DNA of 64,000 nucleotides from IMG/VR virus record IMGVR_UViG_3300005264_000040, positions 113,769 to 177,768 of that record, one strand, 5' to 3'. The translations under genes were made by a program, and so were the position numbers. Numbering within the stretch: position 1 is the stretch's first letter; every line of letters starts with the position of its first letter. Below are positions 1,884 to 64,000 of the stretch, in pieces. The notes beneath the pieces were generated by a model, which was given only the letters and a program-made list of their open reading frames with translations, was not told the origin of the DNA and ran no database searches. This stretch comes from a virus.

Positions 1884-3804
1884 TGCAACCAGGACTTCTT
1901 GGCGGCCTTACTTCCGGATTAGATTTTATTTGCTGGGGATTCTGAGGCTGTTGCGGTTGTTGTGGTTGTTGTGGTTGTTGCCCCCCACTTGTATATTGCT
2001 GTAATGCGGCAATTACATCATCTGTTAAATAAGGCATAATTTGGTCTAAGAAACCTTGGTTAGATTGATCTAATTGTTGTAATTGGCTCAATATTTGTTG
2101 TAAATGAGCTGGAGGTTGTGGGCCTCCAGCCTGTTCGGGTGGTTGTTGAGGTGGTTGCACTTCTGCTGCATTTGGCAAACCATTAATAAGTAATTCTTTT
2201 ATCTCAAGAGGTGTATAGGTTTTATCTAGTGATATAGAAGGTGTAGCCTCAAATGCTTGAGCATTTGTTTGAGCTTCTTCTACAACCTTCTGTGCTCTAT
2301 ATTGTGATAAAGATTGTGTTTCTGCCATTGTTAATTCTTCCTGTTTTATGTTATTCATTTCTTCTTCGTAATCTAATCCAAAGTTTTCTAACAATGTCTT
2401 TCCAGAAACTAATTTCATCTGATTTAAATTCATCAATGATTGTTTAAACTGAACGTCATCTGCCATTTTAAATGGTGCAAAATCCACTTTTACTCGTGGT
2501 AATTTATGATAATTTGCAATATATTTTACTATTTTTCTTAAAACTTCTTTTATTCTATTTCTGTAGTTTATGTATTGATTTTCTAACATTCTCATTGAAA
2601 CAGAACTTCCACTCCAGGTTAAACCCCCATAAACAAATTCTCTTGGAACTCCCATCCCAGCTATAACTTCTTCAGCTAATTGTTGGATTTCAGGTTGCAA
2701 AAGATACATTTTACCGTCTCCTGCAAGTTTCCCTTGACCTACTGGAATAGGGAAAATTCCTACATAAGAAGGGTCTAATTCATATCTTTTTAATTGCATC
2801 CTAATTTTGCTTTCTAATTTTTGAAGATTCATATTATTCATATAAGGTGAAGTTGGATCCACGTTTTGTGGAAATAAATAATTCCTTGGAATTACCTGAT
2901 TAAAAGCAATGTATTCATTAGCTCTTCTTAACATTTGCATATAAAACAAAGTTTTCATTACAGGAGTTATTGCTGGTAATCCCCACCCATTCATATAGTC
3001 AGAAGCTGTTCTAGTCTCTTTTATATGAATGATTTCGTTAAATTCTACTGCAGGATACCCTTTTAATACTGCGTCTATAAAAGGTTTTGGTGTTGTATAA
3101 AGGTACCAGGGTTTTGTTAAAATATTATGTCTTAAAGAATTTTTTATAAAATACAAATATCGATAAGAATCTGAAGTTTCATTATGTTCTATCATCATAT
3201 TATTAGGTTGCCATGAAATTATCCTTAATTTCCCATCTCTTTTTATTTCATCTTTTGATTTCAATGGTTGCATTTTACCGCATTTGTCACAATATCCGTA
3301 TATTTTGTGATTTCTAATATACCAATTGGGTTTTGATTTATCTGAACCTGTATTATAAATTGTCTCATTTGTAGAATTAGTATTATCTTTTTTTAATGTA
3401 ATTTCATGGTCACATACACTACATTTATATGTTCTTGTAAATGGAGGTAATACAGTTAAAAATACATTTCCATACACTTTTAAATCAATCCCGATTTTTA
3501 TTAAAGTGTGTTTTATATTCATCTGTTCAAATATATCTTCATATGCTTCTTTTATCTTTTCATCAGTAGTATCAAGTTCTATTGTAGTAATAGGATATTC
3601 TGCTGATTTTGATATTATAGCATGTACTAACGGATTTGTTTCGTAAAAATATTCTGACCATGAAAACAATTCTTTTATATTTTTAGGAAAAAACAAACTT
3701 GAAACATCAAAGAAAGGAGAAATAGGTGCATACCAAAATAAACTAGCAGCAGTTCCTGTTTTCCTTGTTTCCTTTCTCATTTCTGGATTATTAGTTATAC
3801 CCAT
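1864..3804 (-). CDS. Portal protein with Zn-ribbon insertion and Q/P-rich C-terminal tail
   Basis: 646 aa. The FYETNPLVHAIISKSAEYPIT...IGIDLKVYGNVF N-terminus, GWGLPAI, and GMGVPREFVYGG...GSSVSMRMLEN segments match large-myovirus portals as I recall them. CxxC pairs CSVC and CDKC; PQQ repeats at the C-terminus. Confidence 0.72.
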   Translation of the reverse strand: MGITNNPEMRKETRKTGTAASLFWYAPISPFFDVSSLFFPKNIKELFSWSEYFYETNPLVHAIISKSAEYPITTIELDTTDEKIKEAYEDIFEQMNIKHTLIKIGIDLKVYGNVFLTVLPPFTRTYKCSVCDHEITLKKDNTNSTNETIYNTGSDKSKPNWYIRNHKIYGYCDKCGKMQPLKSKDEIKRDGKLRIISWQPNNMMIEHNETSDSYRYLYFIKNSLRHNILTKPWYLYTTPKPFIDAVLKGYPAVEFNEIIHIKETRTASDYMNGWGLPAITPVMKTLFYMQMLRRANEYIAFNQVIPRNYLFPQNVDPTSPYMNNMNLQKLESKIRMQLKRYELDPSYVGIFPIPVGQGKLAGDGKMYLLQPEIQQLAEEVIAGMGVPREFVYGGLTWSGSSVSMRMLENQYINYRNRIKEVLRKIVKYIANYHKLPRVKVDFAPFKMADDVQFKQSLMNLNQMKLVSGKTLLENFGLDYEEEMNNIKQEELTMAETQSLSQYRAQKVVEEAQTNAQAFEATPSISLDKTYTPLEIKELLINGLPNAAEVQPPQQPPEQAGGPQPPAHLQQILSQLQQLDQSNQGFLDQIMPYLTDDVIAALQQYTSGGQQPQQPQQPQQPQNPQQIKSNPEVRPPRSPGCNGMDTF

Positions 3805-4504: not shown

Positions 4505-5375
4505 TGTTTTTCATCTCCTCGTACAATTCACTTATATCTTTCTTCGTATGTTCAAACCATTGCAATTCATCTATATCTTTCGTGTCATTTATATTATAAC
4601 CCATTAACTCCACCGAAACGTTTAAATTTCCGTTAAATTTAAGTAACGGAGTATTATTAATATATAATGTTCCTAGTAAATCTTTGGCCATCATTTCTTT
4701 GATTAATTCCTTATCATAACCAATCAAAACAATTGGATCATCTTTTTCTACCTTATATTGTACATCGTTAAGTTCAAATGAATAGATTGTATCTTCGTCT
4801 ATGTCTTTTGCGTATATTCGCATTATGTCTAGGACCTTGTTGTATTGCAATAATTCTTTTGGATATACAAAACTCCACAATATAGCTTTTTTTGCAAGTG
4901 TGCTTTTTACTGTACCTTTTACAAATATACTTGCAAATCTGCTTCTTATTTTTGCTTCTATCGGCATTATGTGTAGAGAATATTGTAATACTCTTCTTAA
5001 ATATACACTGATGCTTCTTTTAATTATCCTGCATTCATGTATATCGAATGGTATTTCGTTGCTTATTTTTATTTGTTTCATTATAACTAATGCGATATAT
5101 TTGGATGTCTTGTAGTATTGTACAAAATCTAAATCAATCGGTATATCTTCTTCTAGTTTTGTATATTGCATAAAAATATTCATAGGTCGTGAAATGAAAA
5201 TATTTTGTTTTAAATAACCATTGTAAAAGAGCCAATCTTCACTATGATCTTTTGACATGTTTTCTATTTGTTTTTGGGTCTTTAAATTAATATGTTGAAT
5301 ATGGCAAAGCATTTCTTTCTTTTTGCATTGTTTTTGAATATTTATTCCATTGTAAATTAGAACTATATAATACAA
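4488..5375 (-). CDS. C-terminal part of a giant-fibre family member (repeat shaft plus IND-x-x-D-x-x-E anchor motif); probably the frameshifted continuation of 5287..7950
   Basis: No clear RBS; overlaps the upstream ORF by 89 nt in the +1 frame; continues the xQY repeats and ends with LNVSVELMGYNINDTKDIDEL. Confidence 0.55.
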   Translation of the reverse strand: MYYIVLIYNGINIQKQCKKKEMLCHIQHINLKTQKQIENMSKDHSEDWLFYNGYLKQNIFISRPMNIFMQYTKLEEDIPIDLDFVQYYKTSKYIALVIMKQIKISNEIPFDIHECRIIKRSISVYLRRVLQYSLHIMPIEAKIRSRFASIFVKGTVKSTLAKKAILWSFVYPKELLQYNKVLDIMRIYAKDIDEDTIYSFELNDVQYKVEKDDPIVLIGYDKELIKEMMAKDLLGTLYINNTPLLKFNGNLNVSVELMGYNINDTKDIDELQWFEHTKKDISELYEEMKNNEQNS

Positions 5376-60700: not shown

Positions 60701-61216
60701 ATGAAGCGTGCAAAAAGAAGTATTATGAAAGCATATGTGGAAATCTTCAAAGAAGCTTTTCCAACTTTTTCTAAAAGATTTATTAATGGAATAGTGATTA
60801 ACGAACAACAAAAATCTATAAGTTTTGATGTTGAAGTGGATTCATTAAAATACAAAGCTGTTTTACGAATAGGTCTAGAAACCGAAATAATCACTATCTT
60901 TGAAACTATGGTCACTATTTTAGAAAACACTTCAACTAAAACATTGGAAGTGCCTTTGGGAGCAAGTAGAAGAAAATACAAATTACCTCCTAAATCACAG
61001 GTAGCTTGGGTTGGAGAACGTACTATCCTCGAAAAAACATTAAGAGATTATTTAAACAGAATTGAATATGAAAACAGAAAAGTAATGCTTAATCCAAAAA
61101 ACAAAGTAATATTACAATATAAGATGATTCCTTTTTCTAATAAATCAGCTGTTAAAAAATTTTTAAAAAGGAAAACACCAATTTTATATGTGGATTTAAT
61201 AGATGAGTTAAATTAA
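60701..61216 (+). CDS. Basic hypothetical protein (about 171 aa)
   Basis: Start moved to ATG 60701 behind AAAGGAGG. The track ATG at 60659 overlaps the TGTTATAAT promoter (TTAGTA-N15 variant, 60631-60660). Confidence 0.6.
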   Translation: MKRAKRSIMKAYVEIFKEAFPTFSKRFINGIVINEQQKSISFDVEVDSLKYKAVLRIGLETEIITIFETMVTILENTSTKTLEVPLGASRRKYKLPPKSQVAWVGERTILEKTLRDYLNRIEYENRKVMLNPKNKVILQYKMIPFSNKSAVKKFLKRKTPILYVDLIDELN

Positions 61217-61241
61217 ACGCCCTTTTTTAGGGCGTTTTTTT
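61215..61241 (+). terminator. Intrinsic terminator marking the boundary to the GC-richer region
   Basis: aaacgccct/agggcgttt followed by a T-run. Confidence 0.8.
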
Positions 61242-61243
61242 AT

Positions 61244-61278
61244 GCTTAAAAAACGAGAATATTTTTGGTATATATAAT
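61244..61278 (+). promoter_or_regulatory. Second promoter class GCTTAAAAA-N12-TTGGTATATATAA, copy 1
   Basis: The same motif recurs at 61720-61753 and 62617-62650, with a degenerate copy at 61613-61648. Confidence 0.65.
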
Positions 61279-61320
61279 ATGTTCAGTGACTTCTATAGGA
61301 AGTTCTTGAACAAAATTTAA

Positions 61321-61376
61321 GCCTGTAGGATTCTTTCCCACATTCCTGCAGGCGATATAACGGAGGTGGGAATATG
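61321..61376 (+). ncRNA. Translation-initiation hairpin/pseudoknot motif, copy A (cis-regulatory RNA candidate)
   Basis: 10-bp stem, 13-nt loop; loop TTCCCAC is complementary to GTGGGAA between the SD and ATG 61374. Confidence 0.7.
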
Positions 61377-61586
61377 TTGTTTAAGAAAAAAGAAGCCCCT
61401 AAAATGGGGCAAAAATTTGTGAAACTCTCGGTCGAAAAGGCCGAGGGTTTCGAGCTCGGCCTAAGAATGGCCGGTTTCGAGAAAAGCAGCACCCATAAAA
61501 AGGTGCTGCGTGAAATCCCCTGGGGGTACAGGGGATTTGTAGTAGATCTTGATGAAAAGATCTACTATATTGTAATAGGGGTGTGA
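61374..61586 (+). CDS. Small early-type hypothetical protein (70 aa)
   Basis: GGAGGTG RBS; followed by a terminator at 61577-61602. Confidence 0.7.
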   Translation: MLFKKKEAPKMGQKFVKLSVEKAEGFELGLRMAGFEKSSTHKKVLREIPWGYRGFVVDLDEKIYYIVIGV

Positions 61587-61602
61587 TACCCCTTTCTTTT
61601 TT
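61577..61602 (+). terminator. Intrinsic terminator
   Basis: aggggt/acccct stem plus ttctttttt. Confidence 0.7.
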
Positions 61603-61719
61603 ACAAATTGCATTGTAAAAAAATAAAAAAATATTGGTATATATATATAGGTAAAGGGCGCCGCCCTGAATATTTTATTATCCTGTGCATTTAAATGTCT
61701 AATAATAATTTGAAAAAAC

Positions 61720-61753
61720 GCTTAAAAATGCACAGGGTTTTGGTATATATAAA
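61720..61753 (+). promoter_or_regulatory. Second promoter class, copy 2
   Basis: GCTTAAAAA-N11-TTGGTATATATAAA. Confidence 0.65.
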
Positions 61754-61754
61754 T

Positions 61755-62069
61755 TGTGAGCAGGACTTCCTTTAGAGGTCCTGCATATCTCCCTGGAAGT
61801 CAGGGAGCGGAACTGCGAGACATCGCAGGCGGAAAACTCCTCTACTTTTTATAAGTAGGGCAAGGGAGGCTCTAATATTAGGGCTTCCCGGTAGCGAGTA
61901 CGCCGCAGCGCTCTGCCTCGTAGGGAAGCTGTACTGATTTTCAGGGAGAAGTCCTGGGCCACGGGACTATAAACAATGTGGAAGTGCCCGTATAAGGGCG
62001 CGTTAAACAAAAACCGGCCCCACAGGAATATTGCTCTCAGTCCTGTTGGGGTGACATGGAGGTGAGAGC
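61755..62069 (+). ncRNA. About 310-nt GC-rich structured leader / ncRNA candidate
   Basis: Hairpins at 61760-84, 61789-807, 61813-28, 61864-89, 61950-68, and 62018-51 (motif copy B); no convincing ORF. Confidence 0.65.
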
Positions 62070-62564
62070 ATGAAGTTATTTTTAAGGGTTCTGAACGAAC
62101 CCTCAAAATTCCCGGAGGAAGTTATTATAGCTTCCCTCCGGGAAGCTTTTAAGTACGGCCGTCGGTATGAGGCCGTCATAAAAAAAATGTTACAGGACCC
62201 GGAATTCCGGGTTCCTGTAACAATCAAAATCCCCTCAAGGATGAGGGGATTAGTCCGCAAGGATGCGGAAGAAAAAAAGGGCACAGGCAGGAGTGCCCGC
62301 CCTGGCTCAGCCAGGGTATTAAAGAGCACTGGAAGGTGCTCTATATACATCAAATCTTACGGGGTTGTTCCCGCGAGATTTGATGTAAGAGGCACTGTCG
62401 TAATGATAGAGCCTCTTAAAAAAGGAACCGCAGCATATGCGATTCCTACAGAATTTTTCTTCGGAGCTGTGCGCTCCGGAGAAAAATATCTAAACCTAGA
62501 TGAAGTACCTTTCAAAAGGTACTATCATCGAGGTAAAAGTATTGAAATCATAGCCGGTAAATAG
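62070..62564 (+). CDS. Basic hypothetical protein (164 aa)
   Basis: GGAGGTG RBS embedded in motif copy B; ends in a 14-bp terminator hairpin. Confidence 0.7.
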   Translation: MKLFLRVLNEPSKFPEEVIIASLREAFKYGRRYEAVIKKMLQDPEFRVPVTIKIPSRMRGLVRKDAEEKKGTGRSARPGSARVLKSTGRCSIYIKSYGVVPARFDVRGTVVMIEPLKKGTAAYAIPTEFFFGAVRSGEKYLNLDEVPFKRYYHRGKSIEIIAGK

Positions 62565-62593
62565 TCCTGCCTACCGGCTATGATTCTTTTTTT
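62546..62593 (+). terminator. Intrinsic terminator
   Basis: aatcatagccggta/taccggctatgatt perfect 14-bp stem plus a T-run. Confidence 0.85.
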
Positions 62594-62616
62594 ATATTGT
62601 GTATTATAATATTATC

Positions 62617-62650
62617 GCTTAAAAACACATCAAATCTTGGTATATATAAA
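62617..62650 (+). promoter_or_regulatory. Second promoter class, copy 3
   Basis: GCTTAAAAA-N11-TTGGTATATATAAA. Confidence 0.65.
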
Positions 62651-62654
62651 ATGC

Positions 62655-62861
62655 AAAGGGAGTTAAATACCCTGAGCAGACAGCCTCAGTATCGTCCGAC
62701 TGAGGTGGTGATGGTAAGGACGACAGGCTCAACTCTACTGGCCTGTATAAATATACGGTAGGGTAGCGGTTGCTCACGACCGCTATATAAATAAGTGAGG
62801 ATTGCGCGGACTGACCTCCGACAGTTCGCAATGCAATCAAATTTTAAAAGGAGGGGTTGTC
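62655..62861 (+). ncRNA. About 200-nt structured leader with an A-rich-loop pseudoknot and an anti-SD hairpin
   Basis: Stem 62764-70/62779-85 with loop CTCAC pairing GTGAG (62795-99). Hairpin 62800-38 has loop CCTCC complementary to SD GGAGG (62850-54). Confidence 0.6.
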
Positions 62862-63209
62862 TTGAAGAAGATCAAATGGATTTCAAGGCATCCTCTCCCA
62901 GCTGAAGCTCTTGAAGCTTTGGCTAAGGAATTAAATGTTTCTGCATCCGATATTGTTGTAGATGCAGAAAACATTTTATTCCCAGCCGATGCTGATGGAG
63001 CTTATGCAGCTTTAAAAGAAGCTGCAGCTGGATATGACGCTGTGGGTTTTGTTGCCCCAGCTCAATTGACAGCTGCTCTTCTTAGAGCTGCAGCAGCTGG
63101 GAGAGGCCTTGGAACCAAAGGGTTCTTTGTAATCTCTGTGCCAAAAATGGCACCTGATGGGATTACAAGAACCTTTGTATTCGATCACATAGAAGTATTT
63201 GATATGTGA
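62862..63209 (+). CDS. Small Rossmann-like protein with an N-terminal SRH motif; Csx16/Csx20-like ring nuclease candidate
   Basis: TTG start behind AAGGAGG; IKWISRHPL...YDAVGFVAPAQLTAALL...PDGITRTFVFDHIEVF. Similarity to Csx16/Csx20 is from motif recall only. Confidence 0.5.
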   Translation: MKKIKWISRHPLPAEALEALAKELNVSASDIVVDAENILFPADADGAYAALKEAAAGYDAVGFVAPAQLTAALLRAAAAGRGLGTKGFFVISVPKMAPDGITRTFVFDHIEVFDM

Positions 63210-63214
63210 TTGAA

Positions 63215-63541
63215 TACAGGTTCCTCGGAGGCGAGGTTGCTCAGAACCTCGATGCCGAAATCTGGGCTCTGGAGTAGGTCTCTCCAGAATAATATAAAAA
63301 GACAAGCATAATCCTATACGATGACGGTATAGGACTATGCTAGGGTGGCAGGTCTTTTTCGAGGCCTGTTTTCTTCTTGTCACCCGAAGGTCCGAAAAGG
63401 GCCTAACAGAAAACAGGTGGGCTTAACGCCCTTTCTTATTTGAGAAGGTTGTCATTGATAGCCTTCTGAAATAAGAAAAATAATTCCAACCTCACAGGAA
63501 TCTTACTCCCAGTTCTGTGAGGAGACATTGGAGGTGGGAGT
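63215..63541 (+). ncRNA. About 330-nt structured intergenic leader ending in motif copy C
   Basis: Hairpins at 63268-88, 63306-40 (14 bp, 1 mismatch), caggtct/aggcctg, aggtcc/gggcct, gggc/gccc, and 63490-63522. Confidence 0.6.
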
Positions 63542-63886
63542 ATGTTAAAAAAAATTTTTTTTATTTTAATCTTTGCAGCCGCAATTGCGGCTGCATTTGT
63601 CTTCGGCTATGCCTATGGCAAAGCCGAAGGCAGAGAGCAAACCGCAGCATACTTGCAGCTGCGGTTTGAAGATAAAATAAAAGAAACCGCATCCCAGGCA
63701 TGGGATGACGGTTTCGAAGAGGGTTCCATCGCAGGATGGAACCTTCTTTTGTCCTTCCTTGAATGGAAGGATATTACAAGCGTTGAAGAAATTCAACGCT
63801 TGGTTAATTCGGAAGCTGTAACTTTAACTTCCGAATTAAAAAATTTCCAGGAGCAGCAGAAAAAACTGTTTCTGGAATCTCACTAA
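63542..63886 (+). CDS. Small membrane-anchored hypothetical protein (114 aa)
   Basis: N-terminal hydrophobic helix IFFILIFAAAIAAAFVFGYAYG; GGAGGTG RBS within motif copy C. Confidence 0.7.
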   Translation: MLKKIFFILIFAAAIAAAFVFGYAYGKAEGREQTAAYLQLRFEDKIKETASQAWDDGFEEGSIAGWNLLLSFLEWKDITSVEEIQRLVNSEAVTLTSELKNFQEQQKKLFLESH

Positions 63887-64000
63887 ACAAAACCGCGCCG
63901 TAACTCCGAGGCGCTCCTAAATATCGGAGCTGTAATATGTAGGGGAGGTTCCTACACACGCAGCACACTACTGCGCGGACAATTAAAGTGTCGGAGTTTG

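Follow-up and report, generated by a model that had tools for sequence, protein, structure and literature searches.

At the right-hand end of the genome of an uncultured phage, the same small hairpin stands directly in front of genes that share no detectable relationship, and this raises the question of what a repeated RNA structure does at the ribosome sites of such different genes. The stretch analyzed here (the window) comprises the last 64 kb of the 177,768-bp IMG/VR virus record IMGVR_UViG_3300005264_000040 (linear; CheckV completeness 83%). The same phage is represented by a metagenomic ENA scaffold of 184,070 bp, the opposite end of which (L003) holds 5,274 nucleotides (nt) that are not in the IMG/VR record. 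The initial annotation of the window described three copies of the hairpin (A, B and C), in each of which the loop is complementary to the spacer between the Shine-Dalgarno (SD) sequence and the start codon, and proposed that they form pseudoknots that switch the translation of early genes. With two further copies (D and E) from the other scaffold end, the evidence favors the pseudoknot and lends no support to a dedicated switch.

Two predicted interleaved helices in five leaders

Copies A, B and C can be read directly at the annotated positions, with their stems, 13-nt loops, linkers of 6–8 nt, GGAGG, a 7-nt spacer and ATG. When D and E are included, part of this description has to be relaxed: the 5′ arm ends in AGGA in A–C but in AGGC in D, the loops range from 12 to 14 nt, and the spacer of 7 nt followed by ATG in A–D is replaced in E by 8 nt followed by TTG. 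The hairpin stem (S1) is 10 bp in all five copies. The helix formed by loop and spacer (S2) is 6–8 bp, GC-rich and perfectly Watson-Crick throughout, in agreement with the 7, 8 and 8 bp first described for A, B and C. The distance from the stem to the pairing segment of the loop (L1) is 4 nt in all five copies, the distance from this segment back to the stem (L2) is 1–2 nt, and the connector between the two helices (L3) is 11–13 nt, with GGAG(G) at its end. In every copy the loop of the first helix can thus pair 3′ of that helix, which is the topology of an H-type pseudoknot, and, by rule of thumb, an L1 of 4 nt over 6–8 bp and an L3 of 11–13 nt over 10 bp are long enough for such a fold. The duplex energies are −13.7 to −18.3 kcal/mol for S1 and −11.8 to −14.5 kcal/mol for S2, and on a rough estimate the pseudoknot would gain several kcal/mol in stability over S1 by itself. 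The copies differ in the register of S2 against GGAGG. In A, D and E the helix takes in the last 1–2 G of the SD sequence, and in B and C it begins one base after GGAGG and takes in the A of ATG; L1 and L2 are kept despite this shift. All five copies contain GGAGGTG, and the first 15–25 nt after each start are A/U-rich and unpaired. Mean pairwise identity is 71% within the motif and 52–55%, the random level, in the 60-nt flanks. The copies resemble one another more in the upper stem (YAGGM/KYCUR), at the first bases of the loop (A-U-N-U) and in the connector (AGAC...) than in the lower stem and S2, where they have drifted apart through compensated changes.

A strict pattern matched copies B and C, with none expected from shuffles. 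The covariance-model search that had been proposed was carried out on the genome and the extra scaffold end with a model built from the five copies, D and E having joined A–C; it recovered them at E-values of 1e-21 to 1e-25 and gave no further match above 15 bits. In S1, 97.8% of the cells pair, and both-sided changes are present in five of the nine pairs. The covariation score of S1 was 0.622, compared with 0.315 in shuffles (reached by 0 of 500), and the signal was destroyed by sliding the 3′ partner. The S2 sequences differ among the five helices, with two compensated double changes between B and C, two between A and E, and one between D and E (U-A vs C-G; read by eye). The compensatory changes that had been noted between B and C are confirmed, with a single one in S1 and two in S2. 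The pairing of loops with their own spacers had a mean energy of −12.96 kcal/mol, compared with −9.36 kcal/mol for the spacers of other copies, and only 2 of 120 permutations were as good. Among approximately 490 windows between −300 and +200, the best partner of the loop was its own spacer in all five copies. A GC-rich loop/spacer match of at least 6 bp was found at only these five of the 65 GGAGG-led starts in the genome, the other matches being AT-only low-complexity runs. When the loops were shuffled, the five copies together gave a summed z of −5.15, and the observed sum was reached by 0 of 5000 shuffles. Within the genome, covariation of both interleaved helices thus lends good support to the predicted pseudoknot, as first suggested for A–C, and S2 is probably a selected pairing. 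Two other pairings were considered and rejected: a conserved alternative helix between the 3′ arm of S1 and the SD sequence, which is present only in B and C, and a pairing of UCCAA in the 5′ flank with UUGGA, which holds only in copy C.

Several observations weigh against the pseudoknot. The loop is pyrimidine-rich and the ribosome site purine-rich, so the complementarity of S2 is partly compositional, and pairing energies of −6 to −9.6 kcal/mol persist after the loops are shuffled. Taken singly, the copies give P values from 0.002 (B) through 0.05 (C) to 0.16 (A), and the register of S2 is not the same in A, D and E as in B and C. Nested folds (ViennaRNA, without a pseudoknot model) give S1 and S2 as near-equal alternatives in B and C. 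The evidence is drawn entirely from five paralogues of a single metagenomic phage; no homologue was found elsewhere, hence there is no independent lineage for the covariation, and a test of the R-scape type is without power. The pairing strength of shuffled loops and the individual weakness of A and C would also fit an explanation in which the hairpin alone matters, as a stabilizer or spacer element preceding a strong ribosome site, and the loop/spacer complementarity is a by-product of composition and ancestry that does not form in vivo. Copies D and E, in which each loop pairs not only with its own spacer but also with that of the other copy, agree with this. However, S2 contains at least five compensated double changes, the preference for the own spacer has no exception, L1 stays constant although the register shifts, and loops of 12–14 nt are large for this region, where most other hairpins have loops of 3–8 nt. 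We therefore consider the hairpin-only explanation quite improbable.

A possible lid on the ribosome site

Complementarity, covariation, constant geometry and context are observed features of the five copies. They suggest a cis-acting H-type pseudoknot module that would cover the spacer and start codon, leave GGAGG exposed and serve as a constitutive, ligand-free lid on at least five early genes, a reading to which we give an even chance. The S1 hairpin would form first, during transcription, and S2 once the spacer emerges, when 6–8 nt of the 12–14-nt loop could pair with it to complete the pseudoknot. GGAGG would be left in the 11–13-nt connecting loop and the A/U-rich stretch after the start would stay unpaired; the buried part would comprise the spacer and the last 0–2 bases of the SD sequence, plus the A of AUG in B and C. 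A 30S subunit could then dock on the exposed GGAGG, but the start codon would be barred from the P site until S2 melts. The 3′ tail of canonical 16S rRNA carries the anti-SD sequence, and its pairing with GGAGGTG would extend 2–4 nt into S2, which, assuming that the host has a canonical tail, may provide a toehold for prying the lid open. The module would lower initiation and keep an otherwise single-stranded site covered, matching the near-complete pairing of the transcript. From these features we infer that the pseudoknot folds in vivo, in which direction and how strongly it would affect translation, and that the ribosome would open it.

The strongest rival makes use of the same pseudoknot, as the operator for one trans-acting phage or host protein that would stabilize the fold, trap or block the 30S subunit and shut off the early genes together. 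Precedents for such operators are S15 on rpsO and RegA on T4 early mRNAs. The upper stem, first loop bases and connector are conserved beyond structural need, as opposed to the compensated divergence of the lower stem and S2, and one module common to five unrelated genes resembles a regulon. However, the five products differ, which rules out simple autogenous control, no candidate RNA-binding repressor was identified, and the conserved bases could be explained equally by tertiary contacts or recent duplication. A protein operator is in our view unlikely.

The remaining triggers that had been envisaged for a dedicated switch fared no better. For an antisense RNA, no partner of at least 14 nt was found elsewhere in the assembled genome, the longest being 13 nt, which is the chance level. 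A ligand-sensing riboswitch, with the pseudoknot opened or closed by a metabolite or nucleotide signal, would follow a known design, as small H-type pseudoknots bury ribosome sites in the preQ1, SAM-II and guanidine-III classes (PMC10622847). In preQ1-I/II, SAM-II and guanidine-III, a compact H-type fold has a second helix that uses bases at or next to the SD sequence (PMC10622847, PMC4735710). Riboswitches, however, have conserved ligand pockets, wide taxonomic spread and coherent downstream genes with a shared, ligand-linked function. None of this holds for the phage motif, which has very few conserved unpaired bases for a pocket, was found in one phage only and precedes five unrelated ORFans (open reading frames (ORFs) without known relatives) with no metabolic theme or common function that would suggest a metabolite. 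The lack of a match to a riboswitch consensus, noted initially, was borne out by Rfam: the 64-kb window gave 0 matches at gathering score (the families included the S15 leader, Alpha_RBS, preQ1, SAM-II and the guanidine classes), and E-value scans of 61000–64000 and of L003 1–5600 gave no match overlapping a copy. A riboswitch is thus highly improbable. The base-paired start region would also suit an RNA thermometer, in which warming would release the start site, but S2 is a perfect, GC-rich Watson-Crick helix without the mismatches and G-U pairs typical of thermometers. In the ROSE and fourU types the SD sequence lies in an imperfect, weak helix, whereas GGAGG is mostly unpaired here, and we regard control by temperature as very unlikely indeed.

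At the DNA level, the 10-bp inverted repeat downstream of promoters might be taken for the operator of a dimeric repressor placed between promoter and gene. Its arms, however, covary rather than keep one sequence and include G-T pairs, which DNA would not tolerate as matches; complementarity of loop and spacer would serve no purpose in DNA; the surrounding block is more stable on the sense strand; and the distance from promoter to motif varies from approximately 45 to 270 nt. Both the presence of G-U pairs in S1 and the asymmetry between the strands of the block point to RNA rather than DNA as the acting molecule, and a DNA operator is scarcely credible.

Early-transcript block and genome context

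The copies lie in a part of the genome that is hyperstructured over roughly 5 kb, from the end of the window to the other scaffold end (Table 1); L003 2401–2850 and 4051–4650 are also hyperstructured. In every 150-nt window of both parts of the block, coding regions included, the minimum free energy (MFE) z-score is between −2.5 and −11.6, compared with a genome background of −0.47 (standard deviation 1.15). Stems within the ORFs of the block reach 15 bp, there are 32–38 hairpins per 2 kb (median approximately 6), and the GC content is 44%, in a phage that is otherwise AT-rich (GC about 29%). In 27 of 31 windows the + strand folds more stably than the − strand; the mean difference is 7.4 kcal/mol per 150 nt, and the + strand has 161 G-U pairs vs 85 (Wilcoxon p 9e-6). 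The stability of the sense strand and the excess of G-U pairs argue that the structure was selected in transcripts, not in DNA, with selection at the RNA level acting on whole mRNAs of the block. In such a context, constitutive masking or shielding is at least as likely as gating. A more far-reaching proposal is that the motif is a regulon-wide switch worked by one phage or host factor, within approximately 5 kb of near-totally paired mRNAs that are hidden from RNA-targeting defence or RNases. If it were true, pairing would hide the early mRNAs from Cas13, type III CRISPR and toxin endoribonucleases, and the ribosome site would be the only place that must open, hence a purpose-built lid; we hold this proposal to be distinctly unlikely.

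The block contains promoter-leader-gene-terminator cassettes, with the motif as their ribosome-site module. The TTGGTATATA core occurs in four exact copies in the window (0.53 expected), every one of them on the + strand and within the last 2.8 kb, and the three further copies in L003 are likewise confined to the early block. The layout of the boxes is promoter-like and resembles sigma-70, with TTAAAAA, approximately 10–12 nt and then TTGGTATATA; owing to their weak −35 element, they escape a generic sigma-70 scan. These repeated promoters uphold the early-gene setting that had been proposed, and terminators follow ORFs A and B. The segment 61634–61745 contains P2, a GC hairpin, a long hairpin (CCTGTGCATTT...AAATGCACAGG) and a T-run that overlaps P3, and may be a short non-coding transcript of ∼100 nt. 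A TTACAAT(G/A) box is located directly after terminator T-runs (61597–61622; L003 ∼95–110, 1618–1626, 3598–3608 and 4695–4705) and may represent a second promoter class, perhaps for the phage's own RNA polymerase.

Two other leader elements were found in the block. The 115-aa gene, which is without a copy of the motif, has a leader hairpin whose CCTCC mimics the 16S anti-SD sequence, a loop-to-ribosome-site pairing that differs from that of the motif. A second recurring element of ∼105 nt consists of three hairpins with a conserved CAATTAAAG box and has 47 invariant columns across its four copies, one of which is located approximately 45 nt upstream of copy D. In its first hairpin the loop could pair with a segment a few bases farther 3′, and the two sides covary from copy to copy (CUCCGA/UCGGAG vs CCAC/GUGG).

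The five proteins encoded behind the motif are not detectably related, as had been stated for the first three; the best pair is A and E, with an E-value of 0.015 in a 13-protein database. Searched against Pfam, the five ORFs matched no family, and PHROG gave none that is informative about function, the sole PHROG match being a weak one of ORF C to an Rz-like spanin (E 0.0055). ORF B finds only itself among 5.8 billion proteins, and its mRNA is packed with stems of 7–15 bp.

The phage has no close relative among those compared, its large terminase sharing no more than 31% identity with those of Bacillus and Listeria phages. The blastn search of the region against GenBank phages gave no relatives, and specific and generic motif patterns run against viral, metagenome and genome contigs gave only chance matches, which scored below 19 bits with the covariance model or were without the stem. 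One of them, in a Ruminococcus metagenome-assembled genome (CACZSM010000224.1; L015 76–143), pairs at 6 of 7 stem positions and 8 of 9 loop/spacer positions next to GGAGGTG; it reached 18.7 bits in the model and was rejected as a relative and judged a chance match. Protein-led IMG/VR searches with ORF B, the 115-aa gene, the tail chaperone, ORF 60659 and the large terminase found no kin. In the collection of 5.8 billion proteins, ORF B, ORF D and the DUF2201 neighbor matched only themselves or proteins of at most 29% identity, and a protein atlas search with ORF D gave no usable match. No tRNA and no phage-encoded RNase III were found in searches of the phage. A RegB family search gave no match in this genome and was equally silent in control genomes, which makes it uninformative.

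The ends of the assemblies bear on the number of copies. The ENA scaffold and a Logan contig (run SRR6301447) start at the identical base, 333 nt upstream of gene D, and the last base of the window (64000) is the exact stop of the ENA scaffold. Stop points shared by independent assemblies point to true genome termini or to a region refractory to sequencing. Between the two scaffold ends, the assembly appears to lack at least one cassette, and a sixth copy of the motif may lie just past the contig end, because the window ends inside a second element whose paralogue precedes copy D. The IMG/VR record and the ENA scaffold diverge within an AAA_5 ATPase gene (G000 ∼498, corresponding to L003 ∼5772), where ∼850 bp of the scaffold are missing from the record and the gene is split in it as a result.

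Table 1. Positions of the motif copies, genes, promoter cores and other leader elements (window positions unless L003 is given; aa, amino acids)
Feature	Position	Strand	Details
Copy A	61321–61376	+	S1 61321–61330 with 61344–61353, 10 bp (one G-U); loop 61331–61343; S2 61335–61341 with 61366–61372, 7 bp; L1 4, L2 2, L3 12; GGAGG 61362–61366; ATG 61374
Copy B	62018–62072	+	S1 62018–62027 with 62041–62051 (one bulged T in 3′ arm); loop 62028–62040; S2 62032–62039 with 62063–62070, 8 bp; L1 4, L2 1, L3 11; GGAGG 62058–62062; ATG 62070
Copy C	63490–63544	+	S1 63490–63499 with 63513–63522; loop 63500–63512; S2 63504–63511 with 63535–63542, 8 bp; L1 4, L2 1, L3 12; GGAGG 63530–63534; ATG 63542
Copy D	L003 279–336		precedes 416-aa ORF; found by reading the other scaffold end
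Copy E	L003 4073–4129		precedes 132-aa ORF; 8-nt spacer, TTG start; found by reading the other scaffold end
ORF A	61374–61586	+	70 aa; no family match; followed by terminator 61577–61593 and T-run
ORF B	62070–62564	+	164 aa, ORFan; 14-bp terminator hairpin 62546–62585
115-aa gene	62862–63209	+	TTG start; no motif copy
ORF C	63542–63886	+	114 aa; hydrophobic N-terminus
Promoter core P1 (TTGGTATATA)	61265–61274	+	∼45 nt upstream of copy A
Promoter core P2	61634–61643	+	may drive short hairpin transcript ending near 61742
Promoter core P3	61740–61749	+	starts ∼270-nt hairpin-rich leader of gene B
Promoter core P4	62637–62646	+	starts leader of 115-aa gene
TTGGTATATA, further copies	L003 1648, 2397, 4016	+	three copies
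Leader hairpin of 115-aa gene	62806–62829	+	CCTCC in 8-nt loop; complementary to GGAGG 62850–62854, 30 nt downstream
Second recurring element	63887–64000	+	copy cut by window end
Second recurring element, other copies	L003 118–240, 2752–2870, 4528–4640
Hyperstructured block	61201–64000	+	resumes at L003 1–1950; roughly 5 kb

Comparison with known systems and significance

The motif is closest in logic to the rpsO operator of Escherichia coli, where the loop of a hairpin also pairs with the initiation region and the SD sequence stays reachable, as entrapment requires. The rpsO element, however, is single and autogenous, is read by its own product and is opened with protein S1, whereas the phage motif precedes five unrelated genes and has no sequence or Rfam match to it. 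In rpsO the initiation region is held in a pseudoknot that is unfolded before the initiation complex forms (PMC7038950). The leader of T4/T2 gene 32 also contains a phage-encoded H-type pseudoknot that is used for translational control and that a review describes as possibly unique among viral pseudoknots in autoregulating translation (PMC3014915). This pseudoknot is located upstream of the ribosome site, where it nucleates the cooperative binding of gp32, and unlike the motif it is single-copy and autogenous and does not pair with the spacer. In T4 early mRNAs, GGAG sites are shielded from RegB by secondary structure (PMC3014915). Post-transcriptional control centered on the GGAG sites of early genes is thus shared with the T4 RegB/RegA systems, but RegB and RegA are protein factors that act on unstructured sites. 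In repZ/repA of IncI-alpha and IncB plasmids, a hairpin loop pairs beside the ribosome site of the next gene, which activates translation and is blocked by an antisense RNA. S2 of the phage would instead cover the spacer and the start codon, and the assembled genome gave no antisense partner above chance level. Neither sequence nor model scores place the motif in any of these families, from which it is set apart by its presence in several copies before unrelated genes and by the pairing of its loop with the SD-to-start spacer.

To our knowledge, pseudoknots that bury ribosome sites occur in riboswitches and a few ribosomal-protein operators, and always as single, specialized elements. One compact module before five unrelated early genes, with compensation in both helices, would represent a portable, ligand-free 'lidded' ribosome site, which could be directly usable as a part in synthetic biology. 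It is unusual for phage coding sequence to be under RNA-level selection of this strength, and the hyperstructured block may be a larger finding than the motif and outweigh it in importance. The block raises the question of how phages protect or time their first transcripts.

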